Source: a virus (Duplodnaviria > Heunggongvirae > Uroviricota > Caudoviricetes). Taken from it: a DNA stretch of 49,788 nt. Of the stretch, positions 2,064 to 46,954 are shown piece by piece. The translations under genes and the position numbers were made by a program. The stretch is from IMG/VR virus record IMGVR_UViG_2718217868_000004, positions 1-49,788 of that record. One strand, 5' to 3'. The notes below the pieces were generated by a model that saw nothing but the letters and a program-made list of their open reading frames with translations, was not told the DNA's origin and did not search any database. Numbering within the stretch: position 1 is the first letter of the stretch; each line of letters starts with the position of its first letter.

Positions 2064-3413
2064 TTCATCGTCAGTCATGGAGAGCTCAGTAGCTCTCATT
2101 CTATGGTTGTATAAAGAATCGGCAGGCATTTCGACACGCACGGACACAAACTGGTCACGGGGGATATCGACCGGGTCGCCATCATTGATACCCTGTAGCT
2201 CGTTCCTGGCGAACGCCGGTGCTTCCGGGTGTGTACGGTGATAGGTTTTCACCAGCACAGAACCGTCCGCATTAACTTCGTAATCCAGCCAGATGAGCGG
2301 CTGCTTGTTGCGGTCGGTGGGGATATCAAAACCGCCATCGATGCCGCCCCAGGCTGCGTCTGAGTTCATTCCCTCACATCCTTCAACCAGATATTCACCG
2401 ACGGCAAGACGGGTTACAGTGCAGCCTTCTGATTCATCGTTAGTCTGGTATGTACCATCCGAAAACATCTTTAACACCGGCGATGCGGCTTTTAGAGTGC
2501 CATCGCTGGCACGAGTTGTATTGATGGTGGTATAGACTGCAAACCAATCGGAATAATTGCCAGCTGCATATTTAGTTCGCCCTGCGATTCCCTTTTGAGT
2601 GATTACGCATTGGGCATTGAACAACCCAGCCCCAACATTCAATGCCACTCCATAATAGTTAATTAGCGATTCCCCTATGCTTTTCGAAGGTGAGCCTTCC
2701 CCCGCACCATTTCCGTCATCAAACTGGCGGCCATAGATGCCAGAACCACCGTAGTTGGGAGAGGCATCAGGCATATCAGTGGTGCTATTCCAGTTTTTGT
2801 TATTGGTTGTCCCAGTAAAAACTTGCTCAACTATTTGCAGGCTATTCCTTGCATCTTTAGCTGAGTTGGCACCCGTCCCACCTAAGCTGACAGGTACCAC
2901 ACCTTTGCTATCTACCAAACCGAGGTTTGTGCGAGCGTCTGCTGCAGTCGTTGCCCCGGTCCCGCCGTCTGCAACAGCAAGCGCACCGTTGCTCCCTTTC
3001 TGCGCAAGTTTACCGATGCCTGGGATGGTTACGGCGGTGCCGTTGATGGTAACTGTGATGCTTTGGTTTGCTGAGGTGGTGGCGAACGTCTCCCACGCGC
3101 CAATATTCTCGTCATATTCTTTGATGAGCTGCGACATTGCCTGGGCCAGTCCGTCGACGGAGATAATGTCTGACACCAGAATGGCGTATTTCTGGCCGCT
3201 CAGCGCCGGAGAAGCTGCAGGCGTAATCGTCATTGACGTGGCGCTGTTCACGGATGAAATCTGGAACAGCTGCACCGGGTTAGACATCACGATAATTGTC
3301 TGCCCAGCGCGAACCTGGCTGGCCGGTGCCGTCCAGTTTGTGCCCGTCCCGGTGGCGGTATTTCCATTAATGGCGATGGTGCCGGTGTTATAAAGCATAT
3401 TTTCTCCAGGCAA
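2055..3413 (-). CDS. Side tail fiber protein (Stf-like, constant part); probable true start at ATG 3398
   Basis: Gly/Thr-rich N-terminus and repeated GGTGA..DARxNLGL phage tail fiber repeats; GGAG RBS before the ATG at 3398; stop codon sits inside the right crossover site. Confidence 0.8.
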   Translation of the reverse strand: MPGENMLYNTGTIAINGNTATGTGTNWTAPASQVRAGQTIIVMSNPVQLFQISSVNSATSMTITPAASPALSGQKYAILVSDIISVDGLAQAMSQLIKEYDENIGAWETFATTSANQSITVTINGTAVTIPGIGKLAQKGSNGALAVADGGTGATTAADARTNLGLVDSKGVVPVSLGGTGANSAKDARNSLQIVEQVFTGTTNNKNWNSTTDMPDASPNYGGSGIYGRQFDDGNGAGEGSPSKSIGESLINYYGVALNVGAGLFNAQCVITQKGIAGRTKYAAGNYSDWFAVYTTINTTRASDGTLKAASPVLKMFSDGTYQTNDESEGCTVTRLAVGEYLVEGCEGMNSDAAWGGIDGGFDIPTDRNKQPLIWLDYEVNADGSVLVKTYHRTHPEAPAFARNELQGINDGDPVDIPRDQFVSVRVEMPADSLYNHRMRATELSMTDDEGE

Positions 3414-3692: not shown

Positions 3693-3759
3693 TTTGATAG
3701 TATCCAGAGGAATTCAGTATCTTAGACGATACCAATACAATTCTGGTGGGTATAATTGA

Positions 3760-3803
3760 TTGGATAGATCAATATTATGTTATTGATCGCTAAAAACGAT
3801 CAA
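3760..3803. promoter_or_regulatory. AT-rich promoter region with three clustered GATC sites and an 8-bp inverted repeat upstream of the lipoprotein gene
   Basis: GATC near 3767, 3785 and 3798; ATTGATCG-N7-CGATCAAT inverted repeat; minus-strand TTGATC / CATAAT promoter-like hexamers. Confidence 0.3.
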
Positions 3804-4478
3804 TCAATCATAGGCCGCTGTATTTATGGCGGTTAATGAAATGCCAGTATTCGTTCCCCCTCCAGGTGAACCTGCCCCAGTGGAGGTCCCCCCTGCGTTT
3901 ATCCTCGTATTGGCCCCGTCAAACCTGCATGAAGAATAAGCATTTATCGTGTAGATAGTCGGAGGCTGGGTTGAATTATTCACAATGATGGTCTGACCCA
4001 ACTGAGCAGGTGCAACGGCCCATGACCCGCTCAGCGTCTGGTCAATATTTATCCCGCCGTTTGCACCAGGCGTGCCAACCGTCTGCAGGTCTGATAGCAC
4101 ACGGGACTCATTAGTTAACACAAGCTTTCCGCTCGCATCCCATATTGCCAAACCCCATTTCGGTAATATCTGCGGGAATATGGCAAAAACGTACGCCGTT
4201 AAAGTGAAACTTTGGTTGTAGGGATTAACACCAGCAACATACACATTACCGCCGTTCCTGTAAGACATAACCGGAGTGGGCTGTGCTGTATTGGTGGTTT
4301 TGATAAAAACCATCACTGGGTAATCAGCGTTTAAAGCGATATTTTGAGCAACCTGCTGAGAACTGCCATTCGCGGATGAATTGAAGGTATACTTCCCGTA
4401 AAGACAGAAAGGCGTTGATTGTGGCGTTACAAAGGGATTCCCGTTATCCATTAATATCATCGCGCCAAATTCGGCCAT
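3804..4478 (-). CDS. Hypothetical tail-associated protein downstream of J
   Basis: 224-aa ORF, Gly/Thr/Asn-rich, abuts the next gene; position after J. Confidence 0.5.
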   Translation of the reverse strand: MAEFGAMILMDNGNPFVTPQSTPFCLYGKYTFNSSANGSSQQVAQNIALNADYPVMVFIKTTNTAQPTPVMSYRNGGNVYVAGVNPYNQSFTLTAYVFAIFPQILPKWGLAIWDASGKLVLTNESRVLSDLQTVGTPGANGGINIDQTLSGSWAVAPAQLGQTIIVNNSTQPPTIYTINAYSSCRFDGANTRINAGGTSTGAGSPGGGTNTGISLTAINTAAYD

Positions 4479-39534: not shown

Positions 39535-40472
39535 CGGATCACCCCATAGGCCCAGTCAGTGTTGTTGAAGTCCAGATCTGGCTTGACAGCGCGCTGCTCA
39601 CCTCCGGCGTTACGCTGCATTGTCAGCTTGTCCCACTGCTTACGCAGGCTTTCGGGACTCAGGATGTTGGTCTGCCAGAAGTGGTGTTTGCTAGCCCAGT
39701 CATACAGCGCGCAGATGTCCTGGTGCGACCGGTTGTCTATCTGGCGCATCAGGCGAACAGTGTTAGACCAGGAGGTCATGTCCGGGGCTTTGCAGGTTGG
39801 GTTAATCAGCTTCACCCTGGAGGAAATCCACTTAGCTGTCTCGAGGTCTTCAGCAGAGCCCCACTTCGCACCGGATGGTGTGTAGACCGCAGCTTCAGGA
39901 TGAGTTGATAAAAATTTCTTCAGACGTGCGTCAGAGGATTCGTCAGAATTCTCGGACGAAGATCTTTTAATACTGTTCTTGTTCTTGTATTGGGTGTCTA
40001 CCGTTTTCGGGAAGGTTATTCCTGATTTCGGGAAGGATTTTCCCGTTTTCGGGAATTTTCTTCCCGTTTCCGGTTTGTCTAAAATCCATGCTGAAAGGTC
40101 AGTGTTTACACCGACGATTTTCATCATGCCCTGCTTCTGTGAAAAGATGATTTTGCGTTCTGCGAGAGACTTAAGCGCGTCCGATACATGCGTATCGCTC
40201 AGGCCCGTAAGCTCGGCAATAACCGTATTTGTCACGCGGTCCTGTTTCTTGTTCCAGCCGTAGGTAAGCCAGATCACCGCCTCAAAACATTGCCATTCCC
40301 GGCCTGACAGTCTCAGGCGAGGCTTAAGCTGTTGGATCTCGTTAGCGACCTTGGTATACCCGTTCGACAGGTCGGCCATACGACCTCCCGGTTGTTCGGT
40401 TTTATTTGGGAAATTGATTATTTCAGCGGTGTTTGACATACTGTTCTCCGCAATTACGCACTGTTTTTGCAC
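39531..40472 (-). CDS. Replication initiator O (probable start at ATG 40439)
   Basis: N-terminus MSNTAEIINF... resembles lambda O; ori iterons lie within the coding sequence. Confidence 0.85.
   Translation of the reverse strand: MQKQCVIAENSMSNTAEIINFPNKTEQPGGRMADLSNGYTKVANEIQQLKPRLRLSGREWQCFEAVIWLTYGWNKKQDRVTNTVIAELTGLSDTHVSDALKSLAERKIIFSQKQGMMKIVGVNTDLSAWILDKPETGRKFPKTGKSFPKSGITFPKTVDTQYKNKNSIKRSSSENSDESSDARLKKFLSTHPEAAVYTPSGAKWGSAEDLETAKWISSRVKLINPTCKAPDMTSWSNTVRLMRQIDNRSHQDICALYDWASKHHFWQTNILSPESLRKQWDKLTMQRNAGGEQRAVKPDLDFNNTDWAYGVIR
40001..40078. repeat. Origin of replication iterons (about four TTTCGGGAAGG-like repeats at roughly 21-bp spacing) inside O
   Basis: Directly visible tandem repeats followed by an AT-rich stretch; the same arrangement as lambda ori. 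Confidence 0.7.
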
Positions 40473-40523
40473 CTGAAAGCCGTTGGTGTTCGCGCACCGC
40501 GGCTTTCGCCATTTTTGAACCGG

Positions 40524-41063
40524 TCATATAGCCCCCAGCATCATCTGCACCATCTCCATCAGTGGACCGGTTAACCCAGGGTCAACGCGATACATCTCCA
40601 CGATCCCCTCGCTCAACTCTTTCAGCTTTTGATGGCGTGGCGCATCCATTGCGACGGCAATCTTCGCTTCGCTGGTTTCTTTCTCCAGCCGAGCCAGGCG
40701 GGCCATAACGTTGTCTTCTGGTAGCAGACGGTTGCGGTATTCAATCGGCAGGACCGCCAGGATTGCCGGAGTCAGCTGGCGAACGTTCTCACGGTACCGT
40801 TCGCTGTTGAAATGGTTATCCAGGAAGCGGAAAAGCTTCTGCCGCTTTCGGCAGAGATCGTCAGGGAAAGTGATGTCATAACCACCCTGCGCCCGGTACT
40901 CTTCGACGATCAGAGCAGAAACGACATCCTGACCATCTACACCCGCCCATGAACGAACGGCATTTCGAATATCTTCGTGACACGGCCCCTTATAGGTTTG
41001 AGCGCGATTTATCACCGCTTGTTGCGGTACTCCTGTATCCTGGTAAAACGTAAGTGATTGCAT
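40524..41063 (-). CDS. YdaT-like protein (CII-analog family of Rac-type immunity regions)
   Basis: Segments EEYRAQGGYDITF and TPAILAVLPIEYRNRL resemble E. coli Rac YdaT as remembered; located right after the Cro-like gene. Confidence 0.55.
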   Translation of the reverse strand: MQSLTFYQDTGVPQQAVINRAQTYKGPCHEDIRNAVRSWAGVDGQDVVSALIVEEYRAQGGYDITFPDDLCRKRQKLFRFLDNHFNSERYRENVRQLTPAILAVLPIEYRNRLLPEDNVMARLARLEKETSEAKIAVAMDAPRHQKLKELSEGIVEMYRVDPGLTGPLMEMVQMMLGAI

Positions 41064-41094
41064 AGTGCTTTCCCTTTCGTGGTTAAAGCGCCGG

Positions 41095-41322
41095 TCAGGC
41101 TACTTTTGGTTTGCTGATTTCAAGAATTTGGGTGGTGGTAAAGCGACCACCTGAGGCCTCAGCAATTTTCGATGCATAAGCTGTCTCACCGGTGTAATCA
41201 GTACGTGGCAAGCACCCACTATTGATCCACTTGTAAATTGCTCGCGGAGTCCGCTCGCATGCTTTGGCCACCACGGGTACGCGAATCAATTTGATGATTT
41301 CGCCAAGGCTTGTTGGTTGCAT
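41095..41322 (-). CDS. Cro/YdaS-like HTH regulator
   Basis: 75 aa with HTH (ERTPRAIYKWINSGCLP), divergent from the cI-like repressor. Confidence 0.7.
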   Translation of the reverse strand: MQPTSLGEIIKLIRVPVVAKACERTPRAIYKWINSGCLPRTDYTGETAYASKIAEASGGRFTTTQILEISKPKVA

Positions 41323-41337
41323 TTTTTAACCCTCAAT

Positions 41338-41376
41338 ATGAACTGTAAGTACATATTATGTCGGAACTGATAGTTC
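41338..41376. promoter_or_regulatory. OR-like operator region: two imperfect palindromes (ATGAACT-N3-AGTACAT and GAACT-N3-AGTTC) between cro and cI
   Basis: Directly visible palindromes; the same 17-bp motif recurs near 43331-43347. Confidence 0.5.
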
Positions 41377-42113
41377 ACGCAAGAGATATTATGATTGAAC
41401 CTATGGTTCAGGAAGAAAAAGCGCGAAAAGACTTTTCCCATAGGCTAGCGCTGGCCTGCGATAAAGCTGGTTTGCCGGTTCATGGTCGTCAGGCTGAGAT
41501 AGCCAAAAAGATGAAGTTGACACCAAAGGCCGTAAGCAAATGGTTTAACGGGGAATCAATTCCAAGACGCGGGAAGCTGCAAGAGCTTGCTGCGAGTATT
41601 GGTACAACTTCAACTTACCTGTTAGGTGACAGCGAGGTTGATGGAATATCTGAGGGACGCTTGCAGAAATCGACAGAAATATTTCGCATAGATGTGCTCA
41701 ATGTATCTGTCAGTGCAGGCCCGGGCGTGATCAATAGCGAGTTCGTGGAGGTGCTTCGCTCTGTGGAATACTCAGTTGAAGATGCGCGCCAAATGTTCAA
41801 CGGACGAAAGCAGGAACAAATCCGCATCATCAACGTCCGCGGAGACAGCATGTCTGGCACGATAGAGCCGGGTGATCTGCTTTTTGTCGATATCAGCATC
41901 CAACACTTTGATGGTGATGGAATTTACGCTTTCCTGTACGACGAAACAGCTCATGTTAAGCGACTTCAGAAGATGAAAGACAAACTACTGGTAATCTCAG
42001 ACAACCAGACCTATCGCCCGTGGGAGCCAATTGAGAAGGAAGAGATGAACAAGATTTTCGTCTTCGGAAAGGTGATCGGCAGCATGCCGCAGACCTACAG
42101 GAAGCATGGTTAG
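41358..42113 (+). CDS. CI-like repressor with HTH and S24 (LexA-like) autopeptidase domain; probable start at ATG 41391
   Basis: HTH (GRQAEIAKKMKLTPKAVSKW), S24 catalytic Ser (GDSM) and Lys (HVKRLQK); AAGAGA RBS before 41391. Confidence 0.9.
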   Translation: MSELIVHARDIMIEPMVQEEKARKDFSHRLALACDKAGLPVHGRQAEIAKKMKLTPKAVSKWFNGESIPRRGKLQELAASIGTTSTYLLGDSEVDGISEGRLQKSTEIFRIDVLNVSVSAGPGVINSEFVEVLRSVEYSVEDARQMFNGRKQEQIRIINVRGDSMSGTIEPGDLLFVDISIQHFDGDGIYAFLYDETAHVKRLQKMKDKLLVISDNQTYRPWEPIEKEEMNKIFVFGKVIGSMPQTYRKHG

Positions 42114-42181
42114 CAAACTAACAGTGGCCAGATGATACGTTTGGGTGATTATTTTTATTTTTCACAGCAATAGGATGATTT

Positions 42182-42523
42182 ATGACACAGTTTCAACTTG
42201 CGTTAATCGCCAGAGAAGTTGATGGAGAAGTCATCCATCTTCGCACCAAAGACGGATACATCAATGCCACATCAATGTGCAAGTCTGCAGGGAAGCTACT
42301 TGCCGACTATACACGACTAAAAACAACACAAGATTTTTTTGATGAATTATCACGCGATATGGGGATTCCCATATCGGAGTTAATTCAATCATTTAAAGGC
42401 GGAAGAGCAGAGAATCAAGGGACTTGGGTTCATCCAGACATCGCAATTAATTTAGCTCAGTGGCTATCTCCAAAATTTGCAGTGCAAGTATCGAGATGGG
42501 TGCGTGAGTGGATGTCAGGCTAA
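42182..42523 (+). CDS. KilA-N domain protein (standalone)
   Basis: 113 aa with KilA-N pattern (DGYINATSMCKSAGK...GTWVHPDIAINLAQWLSPKF); RBS AGGATGA; no terminator between cI and this gene. Confidence 0.75.
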   Translation: MTQFQLALIAREVDGEVIHLRTKDGYINATSMCKSAGKLLADYTRLKTTQDFFDELSRDMGIPISELIQSFKGGRAENQGTWVHPDIAINLAQWLSPKFAVQVSRWVREWMSG

Positions 42524-42562
42524 AGAGCGCCTGCCGAACTCCCTATCCACCTTAAGCGGTAT

Positions 42563-42943
42563 ATGACAAACCGAGGCAGGGCTCCTCATACGCACTTTTC
42601 TATGCTTAATGAACTGACGTTTAACTTGGTTGCGCCACTTGAACAAGCCGGATATACGCTGCCTGAAAAAATGGTTCCTGATATTTCAGAAGGTAGGGTT
42701 TTCTCGCAATGGCTCCGTGACAACCGGGGTATTGAGCCGAAGACATTCCCAACATATAACCATGAGTACCCAGATGGCCGGACATTCCCGGTACGTCTAT
42801 ACCCAAACGAATATCTTGCAGATTTCAAACAGCACTTCAACGAAGTGTGGCTGCCTCAGTACGCTCCTAAATATTTTGCTGAACGAGACCAAAGGGCATT
42901 GACGTTGATTGAGAAAATCATGCTGCCTGACCTTGATTCCTAA
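42563..42943 (+). CDS. Hypothetical protein, last gene of the cI operon
   Basis: 126-aa ORF followed within 10 bp by a strong terminator. Confidence 0.5.
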   Translation: MTNRGRAPHTHFSMLNELTFNLVAPLEQAGYTLPEKMVPDISEGRVFSQWLRDNRGIEPKTFPTYNHEYPDGRTFPVRLYPNEYLADFKQHFNEVWLPQYAPKYFAERDQRALTLIEKIMLPDLDS

Positions 42944-42952
42944 ATGCCACAG

Positions 42953-42978
42953 CCCGGCCACCGCGCCGGGTTTTTATT
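42953..42978 (+). terminator. Rho-independent terminator ending the cI - KilA-N - orf126 operon
   Basis: CCCGGC-caccgc-GCCGGG stem followed by TTTTTATT. Confidence 0.65.
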
Positions 42979-43198
42979 GCCCTTTCCTCACGAACTCCGC
43001 CGCATCCCGCAATACACCTTTGTGAATCATATTGCCCACGGTTTTTCGCTTCGCTTCCAGTCGATCGACAATAGCCTCACAGTCAATCACCACACCGTCG
43101 ATTATCAACTCAACAACCGCCCCACCAATCTCACCAGCTATGAAAGCTGCGCGATCTTCCAGCAATTCATCACGTGACATATCCATACCTAAGCCCAT
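42974..43198 (-). CDS. Hypothetical small acidic protein convergent with the cI operon
   Basis: 74-aa ORF; weak RBS; real start may be the internal ATG near 43186. Confidence 0.35.
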   Translation of the reverse strand: MGLGMDMSRDELLEDRAAFIAGEIGGAVVELIIDGVVIDCEAIVDRLEAKRKTVGNMIHKGVLRDAAEFVRKGQ

Positions 43199-43259
43199 AG
43201 CAATACCCTGTTTGGTGTTTTTTTGAGCATAGCAAGACTAGAGAAAAAAATAAATAATC

Positions 43260-43350
43260 TTAAAGTTCATATTGTTATGCGTTTATGAACTTGCCACACC
43301 ACTTAAATGTACTATTGGTACTTTACTTCAATGAACTTATAGTACATTAT
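43260..43350 (+). promoter_or_regulatory. OL/PL-like region: operator copy ATGAACT-TAT-AGTACAT plus additional AGTTCAT/ATGAACT half-sites and promoter-like hexamers
   Basis: Same 17-bp motif as at OR; TTTACT and TACATT hexamers flank it; upstream of the recE operon. Confidence 0.45.
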
Positions 43351-43525
43351 CATCCCATCGCGAAACACTAAGCGCATCAAGTTCAAACGTTCCGCCAGCC
43401 TGGCGACAAGGGCAAACACAGAAGTGAGCTTCGCGGTGGTGAATTGCAGAGTTAAAACGCTCAACCGTGAAGATCAGCGCCGCGGCACCACCAGCGAAGT
43501 TCACTCAGAAAAACTGGAGAACATC

Positions 43526-43732
43526 ATGGTTCATCAGCACTACGGTACACAGACAGTAAACCGCGGCGCAGTTCAGCCGGGGATGCTCGTCAAACACAAA
43601 GACTCAACCTGGACGGCATCAGCTAACGCTCGCGGACGTTTGTATCTGCATCGCGGCGTAGAAATGACTTACACCAAGGATTTGCTGGTTGAAGTTTATC
43701 TGAACGGTCTGGGGCATGGACTCAGCCACTAG
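43526..43732 (+). CDS. Hypothetical small protein, first gene of the early-left operon (track ORF starts at 43424)
   Basis: Internal ATG with GGAGA RBS 6 nt upstream. Confidence 0.4.
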   Translation: MVHQHYGTQTVNRGAVQPGMLVKHKDSTWTASANARGRLYLHRGVEMTYTKDLLVEVYLNGLGHGLSH

Positions 43733-43743
43733 CGGAGGATGTC

Positions 43744-43905
43744 ATGTTAGACAAGAAATGCGGATATTGCGGCAAGCCGGTTAAAACGGAGGAAGTAATC
43801 AAGAGCACCCTTCTCTATCGCAACGGCTCACAGCTGGCGCGCAAAGAAAAAGAGTATTGCTCCAAACGTTGCGCTTCGCACGACCAGATGGCTCACGAAG
43901 GCTAA
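43744..43905 (+). CDS. Small zinc-ribbon protein (not in the ORF track, below 60 aa)
   Basis: 53-aa ORF with GGAGGA RBS and CGYCG...CSKRCAS Cys pairs; similar position to the small Zn-binding protein near recE in Rac. Confidence 0.45.
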   Translation: MLDKKCGYCGKPVKTEEVIKSTLLYRNGSQLARKEKEYCSKRCASHDQMAHEG

Positions 43906-44044
43906 CGTAAAACCCGCGCAAGGCGGGATCTACGTCCGGTGGTACCGACCAAAGTTACACCGGAAACAACATTAAAACCAAAGTTAACCCAATGGGCGCT
44001 ATCAATGGTCCGGGGATTCTAACACCCAAAAAAGAGGATCTCAC

Positions 44045-46954
44045 ATGGAATTTTTCCATCTGATAAAAGCCAGTCAGAAGTCTGGCAAGAAAGATGCAGT
44101 GATTTGGTTCACTGCGAAAAGTGTAGCGCGCGCCAATCTCCAACTCGATGTGGCACTGGAAGAAGCCGGAATTGAAGAAACTGGCCGCGGTAAAGATTAT
44201 GCCAAACCAATCCGCACCGATTTCCCGGTATATGACGACCTGCCGGAAGAAGGCGCAGTGGATTACACCTGGTGCGAACGCTACGAACTGCAGAACGATG
44301 ACCGCACCTGGCTGCCAAAAGTCACAGCTGAAAACTCTGACGAGAAAACGGCTCAGACCGTTGATAGTCACATAACTACTGAGTCAACGCTGCCAGAAAC
44401 CGCTGGCATCACGCTGGACGAACACGACGACGACTCAACCCTCTACCCGGTAGTGCAGATGCCGTTTCGTAAGCAACTGCTTTCCCAGTTCACCGCCGAC
44501 GAACTGCGCCACCACGTAACCCACGAAGAGTACGAAGCTATCGGCGCGCTGGAGATGGACACTGATAACAGTTACGTCCAGAACTTGCTGTTAGCTGCTG
44601 AGAACTGCCCGGAAGTGAAGGGTTACGACACCAAAGACCTGTGGCGCTACACCGATGCCATTCGCAAAGTGTTCAGCCAGGACAAGCGTCACGAACTCGC
44701 GCTGGTACTCCGTTTCACCAGAATGTGGGCGGCGACTGATTACATTGACCGTGGCATCCTGGCGCGTGAATGGGCCGCCGGTAATCGCATCAGTAGTGTG
44801 CAGCGTACTGATTCCGGCACTAATGCCGACGGCGGTTACGTCACTGACCGTGGACCTGACGCACACCACACACTGGACACTCTCGATTTAGAGATTGCGT
44901 GTGCCCTTCTGCCTATGGACTTCAACCACTTCGAGATCCCGGGCAGCATTCTTCGTCGCGCTAAAGAAATCGTGACCAAAAAAGAAGAACCATGGAAATC
45001 ATGGAGCAACATCCTGCGCAATCAGCCAGGCGTTCTGGGTGTTAACCGCACGGCTATTTTTAACCTGGTACGTATCGCACCGGAAAATATTCATTTAACT
45101 CCTGTCGCTCACCTGGAATTTGTTAACCAGACCATGACAGCCGCGTTCAATTCCGCGGTCGAGTTATTGCCGTTGCATGAGGCTGAACCCGCAGCACAGG
45201 AAATTCCCCAACCTGAAGGTAAGGAGTCTCCGCGCAAATCCTTCTGCACTCACGAAGAGAACCTGCAACGCGTGCGTGAAGAAGGAGCACGCCGCCGCGC
45301 AGAGGAAGCGGCAGCACAACCGCAGAAAGTCGAACAAGAACTGGTTAAAAATGTCGGCAACGGAATATTCGACGTTACGGCTTTGCTGCAGAACTCAGCA
45401 ACTCATGGCACGAAAAAGGCTACGGAGACCACCAGCAATGTGCAGGTTCAAGAAACTGTCAGTGATGAAAAACAAGCTGGTGATGAAGTACAGCCAGGCG
45501 AAAGCAGTCTGGAGTCTGGTGAAGAGTCAGATACCAGCCAGAAGGACGATGTAGACCAGAATACGGATTCTGTCGCCAAAAATAGCGATTCTGTAAGCCA
45601 AACCGAACCAGTTGCAGCACAAACCGAGCCAGAAGCGCAATCTGACGAACCAGCTGTTGTTTATCCCGCTTATTTCGAGCCAGGCCGCTATGAAGGGCTG
45701 CCAAACGAGGTTTACCACGCCGCCAACGGCATCAGCTCAACCCAGGTGAAAGATGCGCGCGTTTCGCTGATGTACTTCAATGCGCGCCACGTAGAGAAAA
45801 CCATCGTCAAAGAGCGCTCAGCGGTGCTGGACATGGGCAACTTGGTGCATGCGCTGGCGTTGCAGCCAGAACAGCTCGATGAAGAATTTAGCGTTGAACC
45901 CGTAATTCCGGAAGGTGCATTTACCACCACGGCAACGATCCGCGCGTTTATTGATGAGTACAACGCCAGCCTGCCAGCGCAACTGAGCGCAGACGATATC
46001 AAAGCTTTGCTGGATGAATACAACGCCACCCTGCCAGCGCTGGTGCCGCTGGGCGCTAGCCTGGATGAAACGGCGCAGAACTATATGGCGCTGCCAGCTG
46101 AATTCCAACGTATCGATGCAGATCAGAAGAAGACAGCAACAGCAATGAAGGCGTGCATCAAAGAGTACAACGCCACCCTGCCAGCGCAGATTAAAACCAG
46201 CGGCAGCCGCGACGTACTACTCGAACAACTTGCGATTATCAATCCTGACCTGGTCGCGCAGGAAGCTCAGAAGCTGCAACCGCTGAAAGTCTCTGGCACG
46301 AAGGCCGATCTGATTCAGGCCGTGAAGGCAGTCAAACCAGATGCAGTGTTCGCCGACGAGCTGCTCGATGCTTGGCGCAACAACCCGGAAGGGAAAGTGC
46401 TGGTTACCCACCAGCAACTTGCCACCGCGCAGGCAATTCAGTCAGCACTGCTCTCGCACCCGACCGCCGGCATGCTGCTGACCCACCCTAGCCGAGCCGT
46501 TGAGGTGAGCTACTTTGGTTTTGACGAGGAGACGGGCTTGGAAGTTCGTGTGCGCCCTGACCTTGAGATCGACCTGGATGGCGTGCGTATAGGTGCAGAC
46601 CTGAAAACCATCAGCATGTGGAATGTTAAGCAGGAAAGCCTGCGCGCCAGGCTACACCGGGAAATTATTGAACGTGATTATCACCTGAGCGCGGCTATGT
46701 ACTGCGAAACCGCAGCGCTGGATCAGTTCTTCTGGATTTTCGTCAACAAAGACGAGAACTACCACTGGATCGCCATCATCGAGGCATCCGCTGAACTACT
46801 GGAGCTGGGTATGCTCGAGTACCGCAAAGCGATGCGCAATATCGCAACCGGATTCGACACAGGTGAATGGCCAGCGCCAATCACTGCTGACTACACCGAC
46901 GAACTGAACGACTTCGACCTGCGCCGCCTTGAAGCGCTGCGTACTCAGGCATAA
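44045..46954 (+). CDS. recE: Exodeoxyribonuclease VIII (RecE-like)
   Basis: 969 aa; several N-terminal blocks resemble E. coli Rac RecE as remembered (e.g. DFPVYDDLPEEGAVDYTWCERYELQ, ATDYIDRGILAREWAAGNRISS); C-terminal nuclease-like domain. Confidence 0.8.
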   Translation: MEFFHLIKASQKSGKKDAVIWFTAKSVARANLQLDVALEEAGIEETGRGKDYAKPIRTDFPVYDDLPEEGAVDYTWCERYELQNDDRTWLPKVTAENSDEKTAQTVDSHITTESTLPETAGITLDEHDDDSTLYPVVQMPFRKQLLSQFTADELRHHVTHEEYEAIGALEMDTDNSYVQNLLLAAENCPEVKGYDTKDLWRYTDAIRKVFSQDKRHELALVLRFTRMWAATDYIDRGILAREWAAGNRISSVQRTDSGTNADGGYVTDRGPDAHHTLDTLDLEIACALLPMDFNHFEIPGSILRRAKEIVTKKEEPWKSWSNILRNQPGVLGVNRTAIFNLVRIAPENIHLTPVAHLEFVNQTMTAAFNSAVELLPLHEAEPAAQEIPQPEGKESPRKSFCTHEENLQRVREEGARRRAEEAAAQPQKVEQELVKNVGNGIFDVTALLQNSATHGTKKATETTSNVQVQETVSDEKQAGDEVQPGESSLESGEESDTSQKDDVDQNTDSVAKNSDSVSQTEPVAAQTEPEAQSDEPAVVYPAYFEPGRYEGLPNEVYHAANGISSTQVKDARVSLMYFNARHVEKTIVKERSAVLDMGNLVHALALQPEQLDEEFSVEPVIPEGAFTTTATIRAFIDEYNASLPAQLSADDIKALLDEYNATLPALVPLGASLDETAQNYMALPAEFQRIDADQKKTATAMKACIKEYNATLPAQIKTSGSRDVLLEQLAIINPDLVAQEAQKLQPLKVSGTKADLIQAVKAVKPDAVFADELLDAWRNNPEGKVLVTHQQLATAQAIQSALLSHPTAGMLLTHPSRAVEVSYFGFDEETGLEVRVRPDLEIDLDGVRIGADLKTISMWNVKQESLRARLHREIIERDYHLSAAMYCETAALDQFFWIFVNKDENYHWIAIIEASAELLELGMLEYRKAMRNIATGFDTGEWPAPITADYTDELNDFDLRRLEALRTQA

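Follow-up and report, generated by a model that had tools for sequence, protein, structure and literature searches.

An operator set of HK022 type predicted at the lambdoid immunity switch of an E. coli prophage

A well-studied relative of the switch considered here is that of phage HK022, whose immunity region was described by Oberto et al. (1989) and Carlson & Little (1993), as cited in PMC6256539 and PMC8053113. According to PMC8053113, HK022 CI binds cooperatively to adjacent operators, with an extra downstream operator and OL-OR looping; the same paper gives "53 bp between OL2 and OL3" and, shortly before the cI ATG, sets a "PM-10" label beside the HK022 sequence. An HK022-like set (oR1-3, oL1-3, pR, pL) is annotated in the GenBank record of HK75. 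With regard to the 933W repressor, PMC3317979 describes 15-bp operators, reports no cooperative binding to adjacent sites, and assigns to recognition-helix residues K42 and K46 the reading of positions 2-4 of a CGAACT-type half-site.

The window analyzed here, i.e., the whole 49,788-nucleotide stretch of IMG/VR record IMGVR_UViG_2718217868_000004, carries a 17-bp imperfect palindrome both between cro and cI and upstream of the recE operon. The first-pass annotation read it as the binding site of the repressor. We consider it very probable that this motif represents the operator in a lambdoid immunity switch of HK022 type carried by an E. coli prophage, with the functional parts of this reading carried over from HK022, 933W, and lambda. 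The elements on the OR side are the following (operators carry no strand):

41095-41322, minus strand: cro-like gene (75 aa, phrog_35) at the head of the PR operon; its product shares 55% identity with HK022 Cro (E 6e-31)
41338-41354: predicted OR1, ATGAACTGTAAGTACAT, an exact match to the pattern that covers the predicted PR start site and aligns with HK75 oR1 (21.0 bits with a matrix built from HK75 only)
41353-41358, minus strand: predicted PR -10, TAATAT, in position and sequence the -10 of the HK75-annotated pR (TTGACT-18-TAATAT)
41362-41378: predicted OR2, CGGAACTGATAGTTCAC, filling the PR spacer, 24 bp from OR1 (centre to centre), aligned with HK75 oR2 CGGAACTGATAGTACAG (16.1 bits)
41377-41382, minus strand: predicted PR -35, TTGCGT, 18 nt from the -10 and homologous in position to the HK75 pR -35 TTGACT
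41390-41395, plus strand: candidate -10 of PM, the maintenance promoter, TATGAT, from a promoter scan, with CTGATA (41367-41372) as the -35 candidate
41391-42113, plus strand: repressor gene cI, encoding 240 aa if it starts at 41391 or 236 aa if at 41403, with an N-terminal HTH and a C-terminal S24 autocleavage domain
41395-41411: predicted OR3, TTGAACCTATGGTTCAG, centred on ATG 41403 inside the 5' end of cI, 33 bp from OR2, aligned with HK75 oR3 (18.9 bits)

The elements on the OL side, about 2 kb away, are these:

43243-43358, plus strand: the portable OL/PL module of ~116 bp, a blastn block with HK75 3716-3831 (73%) between unrelated flanks
43254-43270: far OL site, ATAATCTTAAAGTTCAT, 53 bp from OL2, in the same block in HK022 and HK75 (14.2 bits)
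43285-43301: middle OL site, ATGAACTTGCCACACCA, at the position of the HK75-annotated oL3, with OL2 22 bp and the far site 31 bp away, spacings as in HK75
43307-43323: predicted OL2, ATGTACTATTGGTACTT, abutting and overlapping the PL -35, 24 bp from OL1, aligned with HK75 oL2 ATGTACTACTGGTACTT and kept in relatives (19.3 bits)
43322-43350, plus strand: predicted PL, with -35 TTTACT (43322-27), 17 nt, and -10 CATTAT (43345-50), starting near a conserved CAT (43356-58)
43331-43347: predicted OL1, ATGAACTTATAGTACAT, an exact match filling the PL spacer, aligned with HK022 OL1 ATGAACTTTAAGTACAT and ranked first by the HK75-only matrix (23.1 bits)

The two exact copies lie where the first-pass annotation had placed them, and the window contains no other exact match; 100 dinucleotide shuffles gave a mean of 0.00. 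A motif scan of the whole window, which that annotation had suggested, added only 43254-43270 and 43307-43323 when up to three mismatches were allowed, both in the OL region; all weaker copies are confined to the two intergenic control regions that carry the exact ones. The additional GAACT/AGTTC half-sites were likewise found: 41364-41376 (GAACTGATAGTTC) is a perfect palindrome, and the broad interval 43263-43292 resolves into AGTTCAT at 43264-43270 and ATGAACT at 43285-43291. The third OR site had been overlooked. It is one of three exact matches in the window to the looser pattern TGWAC-N5-GTWCA, for which 0.18 would be expected, and it brings the inventory to three sites at OR and three to four at OL. 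A literature search found no paper containing either 17-mer exactly or the core of OR2; the system was identified via homology.

In both control regions (OR, 41300-41430; OL, 43243-43358), each site has its aligned counterpart in HK022 and HK75. The site centres (41346, 41370, and 41403 at OR; 43339, 43315, and 43262 at OL) correspond to 2956, 2980, and 3013 and to 3812, 3788, and 3735 in HK75, and the spacings between centres are identical: 24 and 33 bp at OR, and 24, 22, and 31 bp at OL. A weight matrix trained solely on HK75 oR1-3, oL1-2, and OFR ranked six window sites first to sixth, with 23.1 to 14.2 bits, and scored the window sites on a par with HK75's own. Five of the six exceed every one of 30 mononucleotide shuffles, whose top scores had a mean of 13.0 and a maximum of 15.8. 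HK022 OL1, in turn, fits the window pattern at 14/14 specified positions. Similarity to HK022, and also to HK75 and O276, covers homologous CI and Cro proteins (55% identity each), the TGWAC-N5-GTWCA core, the order and spacing of the sites, an OR3 placed on the cI ATG, a far site in OL (53 bp from OL2), and promoter hexamers in homologous positions; in the DNA itself, homology is limited to the OR and OL blocks.

The promoters follow the same correspondence. The first-pass annotation had put each copy between a -35 and a -10 hexamer, which holds for the OL copy (TTTACT-17-CATTAT), whereas the OR copy sits on the start site, immediately downstream of the PR -10, as follows from the homology of PR to the pR annotated in HK75. 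The PL hexamers are homologous to the HK75-annotated pL (TTTACA-17-CATCAT). Two other candidates were discarded: a PL-like PR with CATATT as -10 (41340-41335), whose transcript would begin on the downstream side of cro's conserved ribosome site (GAGGG), and TTGGTA-17-TATAGT from the promoter scan as PL, which is not conserved (e.g., loci L020/L021; -10 variants ATTAGT/CATGGT), whereas TTTACT-17-CATTAT matches HK75 pL.

The cro-like gene is annotated as hypothetical by PGAP. As for the repressor, its Pfam domains are HTH_3 and Peptidase_S24 (E 1.4e-17), and BLASTP aligns it with HK022 CI at 55% identity over 237 aa (E 2e-98). Residues S108-A109-G110, G151-D152-S153-M154, and K190 are invariant in an alignment of six CI homologues, so that the protein shows the Ala-Gly cleavage site and the Ser/Lys dyad predicted for a self-cleaving repressor of the LexA/CI type. 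A search of PDB sequences gave only remote LexA/UmuD matches for CI and none for Cro. The presumed recognition helix TPKA(V/I)SKWFNGE is common to CI and HK022 CI (TPKAVSKWFNGE versus TPKAISKWFNGE), its DNA-contacting residues being those suggested by the 933W model (PMC3317979); the equivalents of K42 and K46 are residues 46 and 50 in PGAP numbering, i.e., 42 and 46 counted from the Met at 41403. From the same helix residues and the fit of HK022 OL1, CI most likely has the operator specificity of HK022, and we infer that it binds the predicted sites.

The identity to HK022 CI is only 55%, with differences in helix 2 and in the surfaces for dimer formation and cooperativity, so that the affinity order and the cooperativity may differ from HK022. 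Could the architecture then be shared while the immunity is not? A repressor heteroimmune to HK022, through differences outside the recognition helix or in cooperativity, would define a separate group. Cro has diverged to the same extent, helix 2 reads AEIAKKMK here and ADLAVRLK in HK022, and the sites differ in detail (AGTACAT versus GGTTCAT in OR1, GTTCAC versus GTACAG in OR2). Against these differences stand a presumed recognition helix that is the same but for V/I, the 14/14 fit, the HK75-trained matrix that makes no difference between the two sets of sites, and spacings that are all identical; we regard heteroimmunity as unlikely. It is far less probable that the palindromes are read mainly by a protein other than CI, such as a host factor, a YdaT/CII-like regulator, or Cro alone. 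Conservation of the sites does extend to Cro, and the middle and far OL sites each keep a single half-site, which is unusual for the site of a dimeric repressor; yet in HK022 and 933W, whose systems are homologous, CI sites have been annotated or measured at these same positions, and the sites travel with cI in more than 80 loci despite differing genes in the cII position.

The remaining reading, a similarity due to chance or to AT-rich promoter DNA with no operator function, may be put aside almost entirely. The sites do overlap promoter hexamers and are AT-rich, and a simple promoter scan gave no excess of promoter-like sites in the region, but no exact matches are expected by chance, and promoter function alone does not explain the dyad symmetry, the homology to annotated operators, or cores that are conserved around variable centres in 83 loci.

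The operator reading is supported by the distribution among relatives. The same OR and the ~116-bp OL module occur in 80 IMG/VR loci and in several Klebsiella phages. The comparison covered 83 loci with cI at 62-100% identity, and OL was counted in the 81 whose DNA reaches far enough. OR1 and OR2 keep a fixed distance from cI in 83/83 loci, OR1, whose centre and outer bases vary, standing 53 nt before the cI ATG, and OR2 retaining an invariant 15-bp core; the half-site cores are kept while centres and flanks vary. The TAnnnT register of the PR -10 is retained across all OR variants, TTGCnT is kept at the PR -35, and the PL hexamers persist in 57 distinct OL modules. Conservation of the far OL site is limited to its right half (AGTTCAT), and that of the middle site to its left half (ATGAACT). 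The OL module, which also aligns with HK022 and the Klebsiella phages, is found 0.9-4.2 kb downstream of OR2 (81 loci), with constant internal spacing. In the Klebsiella phages, conservation is higher in OR than in the coding DNA around it, and the sequences that flank OL are unrelated. The sites accompany cI irrespective of which gene occupies the cII position (a YdaT-like one here, CII in the Klebsiella phages). Together with the HK022/HK75 alignment, the HK75-only matrix, and the homology of cI and cro, these loci identify the two exact copies as the probable OR1 and OL1 of a lambdoid immunity region.

Where does cI start? The first-pass annotation had preferred 41391 to a start only about 35 bp from that of cro. 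ATG 41358 is not the start because it is AAG in many relatives, and PGAP also begins the gene at 41391; the ATG homologous to the start in HK022/HK75 and in phi24B (933W type) is 41403, which is the likely start here. The ribosome-binding site invoked for 41391 adds little, as AAGAGA becomes AAGTGA in relatives. Use of ATG 41391 would give four N-terminal codons that HK022 CI lacks. HK75 oR3 straddles the cI start in the same way as OR3 here. The OR3 core codons ATT, GAA, and GTT show zero synonymous variation among 46 distinct sequences, a suggestive constraint, with the neighbouring codons 8, 9, and 11 equally invariant. The equivalents of the candidate PM -10 stand 7 nt before the cI ATG and read TATAGT in HK022/HK75 and TAGTAT in phi24B.

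With CTGATA as the PM -35, OR2-bound CI would cover that hexamer (centre at -33), a misfit with lambda-style activation from OR2, for which the activating position is -42. A more speculative picture, to which as a whole we give clearly less than even credence, combines three points. cI may be expressed from a leaderless PM transcript that starts at ATG 41403, in the exact centre of OR3; the invariant OR2 centre CTGATA may serve as the PM -35 as well, in which case, unlike in lambda, one site would repress PR and also gate the repressor's own promoter; and repressors at 55% identity (this prophage, many Klebsiella/Citrobacter prophages, and HK022) may still obey a single operator code and show cross-immunity, as a functional "supergroup" of immunity hidden from protein clustering.

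By analogy with HK022 and lambda, CI dimers would bind OR1 and OR2 cooperatively, switching off PR and with it cro, the ydaT-like gene, and the O/P replication genes, and would bind OL1 and OL2 in the same manner, switching off PL (kil, ydaE-like, recE, recT); the spacing of adjacent sites permits such cooperativity. OR3, on the cI start codon and beside the PM -10, may provide negative autoregulation, and the far OL site and OL-OR looping may add further cooperativity. RecA-stimulated cleavage at Ala109-Gly110 would induce the prophage, and Cro would be expected to act on the same sites.

Resemblance to the other known switches is partial. With 933W/phi24B, the locus shares a CI N-terminal domain (47% identical), a half-site core of the form xG(A/T)ACT, the helix lysines K42 and K46, and an OR3 lying across the cI ATG, which a -10-like hexamer precedes by 7 nt, whereas the 933W/phi24B helix begins SSKG instead of TPKA, the outer operator base is usually C instead of T, and only two OL sites are annotated. 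With lambda, it shares divergent cI and cro, 17-bp pseudo-palindromes at a distance of 24 bp, an autocleavage domain of the S24 type for SOS induction, and an OL ~2 kb off and oriented like cI, but the operator sequence is unrelated and OR3 here sits 33 bp from OR2, inside the cI start.

The locus is not a complete HK022 immunity region, as equivalents of OFR, put, and nun are absent from it. No OFR-like site scored above background downstream of cro (40500-41300), and blastn-short gave no similarity to HK022 putL/putR or nun; an Rfam search of 40000-45000 returned nothing above gathering score, an isrB-like match and a spurious snoRNA match both lying below it. OFR, an antivirulence element, is an accessory HK022 feature and does not belong to the operator family. 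With no put homologues, the operator module is shared on its own, apart from the remainder of HK022's early region. The distance from cI to OL is ~2 kb here, with a bstA-like gene and a small ORF inserted, versus ~700 bp in HK022 according to PMC8053113; the bstA-like defence gene is disrupted in this prophage. The gene in the cII position is YdaT-like here and PL drives kil-recE-recT, both unlike HK022.

The novelty implied for the motif does not survive this comparison: its sites match the HK022 operator set one for one, in a system already well studied. It is an ordinary HK022-type immunity switch, with no new regulatory principle. What it offers is a precise annotation of operators, promoters, and the likely true cI start for this prophage and for many Klebsiella, Citrobacter, and E. 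coli relatives, and it predicts superinfection immunity towards HK022-type phages. In these genomes, OR and the ~116-bp OL cassette move with cI as a functional unit, with unrelated genes slotted between them.

The first-pass annotation had described a 17-bp motif shared by the cro-cI intergenic region (OR) and the DNA upstream of the recE operon (OL). The repeat is confirmed: ATGAACTGTAAGTACAT lies exactly at 41338-41354 and ATGAACTTATAGTACAT exactly at 43331-43347. It is far beyond chance, with no exact match in 100 dinucleotide shuffles. Allowing three mismatches or fewer adds just two matches across the 49.8 kb, 43254-43270 and 43307-43323, which both fall within the OL region. The half-sites at 41364-41376 form a perfect palindrome, GAACTGATAGTTC.

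E. coli strains H6 and H5 carry the surrounding DNA (40500-44000) in their chromosomes at 100% identity, and the gene order of this DNA is the lambdoid arrangement:

40524-41063, minus strand: YdaT/CII-like gene
41095-41322, minus strand: cro-like gene, 75 aa
41391 (PGAP start)-42113, plus strand: cI-like repressor gene, HTH_3 and Peptidase_S24 domains
42182-42943, plus strand: KilA-N/BstA-like gene, in two pieces
42951-42972: terminator-like hairpin
42974-43198, minus strand: 74-aa ORF, PHROG 3975 (unknown function)
about 43243-43358: AT-rich control region
thereafter, plus strand: kil, a ydaE-like gene, recE and recT, in that order

cI and the "left" operon are co-oriented, and cro is divergent from cI. 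The bstA-like abortive-infection gene lies between cI and OL, the described bstA position in other prophages. A lone in-frame TAA (42521-42523) splits it, and the PGAP annotation gives two separate CDSs; the KilA-N domain is in the N-terminal part, and matches to PHROG 6287 and PADLOC BstA are in the C-terminal part. The 74-aa ORF, which runs opposite to cI and to the predicted promoter PL, sits between the hairpin and the OL module.

To which repressors is this CI related? Phage genomes were searched at the protein level with its N-terminal domain.

Identity to the CI N-terminal domain
Citrobacter phage Omnitron: 86%
Klebsiella phages: 79%
HK022, HK75, O276: 61-62%
933W-type repressors: 47%

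HK022 CI is 55% identical to the window CI over the full length, as are the two Cro proteins to each other, and the presumed recognition helices read TPKAVSKWFNGE (window) and TPKAISKWFNGE (HK022). In the related 933W repressor, helix lysines K42 and K46 read half-site positions 2-4 (CGAACT-type), and specific binding is lost in the K46A mutant (PMC3317979); both lysines are found in the window CI. Two features of self-cleaving repressors, the Ala-Gly cleavage site and the Ser/Lys dyad, are unchanged throughout a six-sequence alignment, so that SOS induction of the prophage would be expected.

The GenBank record of HK75, which annotates HK022-like oR1, oR2, oR3, OFR, pR, oL1-3 and pL, provided the reference sites, and the predicted window operators correspond to them site by site:

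Operators of HK75/HK022 and of the window
OR1: HK75/HK022 GTGAACTTATGGTTCAT; window ATGAACTGTAAGTACAT
OR2: HK75/HK022 CGGAACTGATAGTACAG; window CGGAACTGATAGTTCAC
OR3: HK75/HK022 TTGAACTTATGGTTCAA; window TTGAACCTATGGTTCAG
OL2: HK75/HK022 ATGTACTACTGGTACTT; window ATGTACTATTGGTACTT
OL1: HK022 ATGAACTTTAAGTACAT; window ATGAACTTATAGTACAT

HK022 OL1 agrees with the pattern of the 17-mer at 14/14 specified positions, and the centre-to-centre spacings are the same (OR 24, 33 bp; OL 24, 22, 31 bp). DNA homology to HK75 is limited to two blocks, 41183-41567 (70%; cro 5' half, OR and cI N-terminal domain) and 43243-43358 (73%; OL module). When a weight matrix was trained on HK75 sites only, its six best hits were the window sites (23.1, 21.0, 19.3, 18.9, 16.1 and 14.2 bits); the best score on shuffled sequence had a mean of 13.0 and a maximum of 15.8. 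With this matrix, no equivalent of OFR, the extra HK022 operator downstream of cro, scored above background at 40500-41300, and no HK022 put RNAs or nun were found either. The label "OL3" appears to denote different sites in the HK75 annotation and in Carlson & Little, as far as the latter is quoted in PMC8053113. Between OL2 and the far site (43254-43301), only two single half-sites are kept family-wide, AGTTCAT (43264-70) and ATGAACT (43285-91), an everted pair 21 bp apart whose partner halves vary freely; conservation, HK022 included, extends to the A-rich block AAAAATAAAT immediately upstream.

By homology to HK75 pR (TTGACT-18 nt-TAATAT), the promoter PR is predicted on the minus strand as TTGCGT (41382-41377)-18 nt-TAATAT (41358-41353), so that OR2 would occupy the spacer and OR1 would overlie the start site. 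PL, by homology to HK75 pL (TTTACA-17-CATCAT), is predicted as TTTACT (43322-27)-17-CATTAT (43345-50), with OL1 inside the spacer and OL2 adjoining the -35. The proposal that a -35 and a -10 flank each copy of the motif thus holds for OL1, and not for OR1. The interpretation of the repeats as repressor operators is supported: the proteins and the sites are homologous, the geometry is the same and the promoter hexamers are conserved. The predicted PL leader (43357-43530, plus strand, about 170 nt) gives an extended hairpin on folding (MFE -54.7 kcal/mol, z -2.3) and is followed by kil (43526-43732) and the ydaE-like gene; no N-like ORF, HK022 put homologue or Rfam hit was found. Phage mEp237 is 99% identical to 43385-44000. 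Between the ydaE-like gene and recE, 43907-44003 (minus strand) matches the Hfq-binding Salmonella sRNA isrB below the Rfam threshold (28.6 bits, E 0.032; gathering score, 35).

The comparison was extended to 83 loci: 80 IMG/VR loci (CI 62-100% identity), two Klebsiella phages and the H6 locus. OR1 and OR2 lie at a constant distance from cI in all of them, and the OL module, its internal spacing unchanged, is present in 81/81 loci with DNA long enough, 0.9-4.2 kb (median 2.0 kb) downstream of OR2. Half-site cores (positions 2-6, 12-16) are kept and the central triplet and outermost bases vary, as would be expected of an operator bound by a dimeric HTH protein. The OR of the Klebsiella phages is near-identical to that of the window (adjoining coding DNA, about 78%), and their OL flanks are unrelated to the window's. 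Given the fixed OR, the portable OL module and these unrelated flanks, OR with cI and the ~116-bp OL cassette behave as a single mobile functional unit, one that is rare in E. coli (9/5,426 complete genomes at megablast sensitivity).

Another question is where cI starts. ATG 41358 was rejected, as it is AAG in many relatives. The first-pass choice of 41391 is also the PGAP start; its claimed RBS, AAGAGA, is weak and reads AAGTGA in relatives. In HK022/HK75 and phi24B (933W-type), the cI ATG lies at the exact centre of OR3, equivalent to 41403 in the window, and a -10-like hexamer ends 7 nt before it (TATAGT, TAGTAT and, at 41390-95 in the window, TATGAT). The loopometer supplement places a "PM-10" label adjoining the HK022 TATAGT region (PMC8053113). 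From these features, a leaderless transcript of the maintenance promoter PM, starting at 41403, is a reasonable inference, and 41391 could be used on read-through (establishment) transcripts. Among 46 distinct sequences, the OR3 core codons ATT, GAA and GTT are free of synonymous change, as are 13% of the other degenerate codons; this is only suggestive of operator constraint because the adjoining codons are invariant too.

The 15-bp core of OR2, GGAACTGATAGTTCA (41363-41377), is invariant in 83/83 loci, its centre CTGATAG included, and HK022/HK75 share 14/15 positions, whereas the other operators have variable centres. This suggests a second constraint on the OR2 centre. Located 17 nt upstream of the candidate PM -10 (TATGAT), CTGATA may be the PM -35, which would place OR2-bound CI at -33, a difference from lambda.

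By analogy with HK022 and lambda, cooperative binding of CI dimers to OR1+OR2 and to OL1+OL2 would switch off PR and PL, OR3 would serve autoregulation, and stability would be added by the far OL site together with a ~2-kb OL-OR loop. HK022 CI is cooperative on adjacent operators and loops OL to OR (PMC8053113); its far OL site is reported 53 bp from OL2, and that of the window is likewise 53 bp away. RecA-stimulated cleavage would release repression, and Cro would then act on CI's sites.

Collectively, sequence comparison supports the switch as an additional member of the HK022-type, broadly HK022/933W-type, repressor-operator family. The family is already known, and the window operators are no new kind of element. 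The phi24B locus (L086) has annotated operators at 244-318 and 3349-3387, among them CGTACTTTCAGTACG and CGAACTATTGGTTCA; they have the core G(A/T)AC-N5-GT(A/T)C in common with HK022-type sites, and OR3 likewise straddles the cI ATG. As more modest points, the switch may be cross-immune with HK022, cI may be leaderless and OR2 may have two roles. The operator code and OR3-on-ATG layout appear ancestral to a large repressor family.
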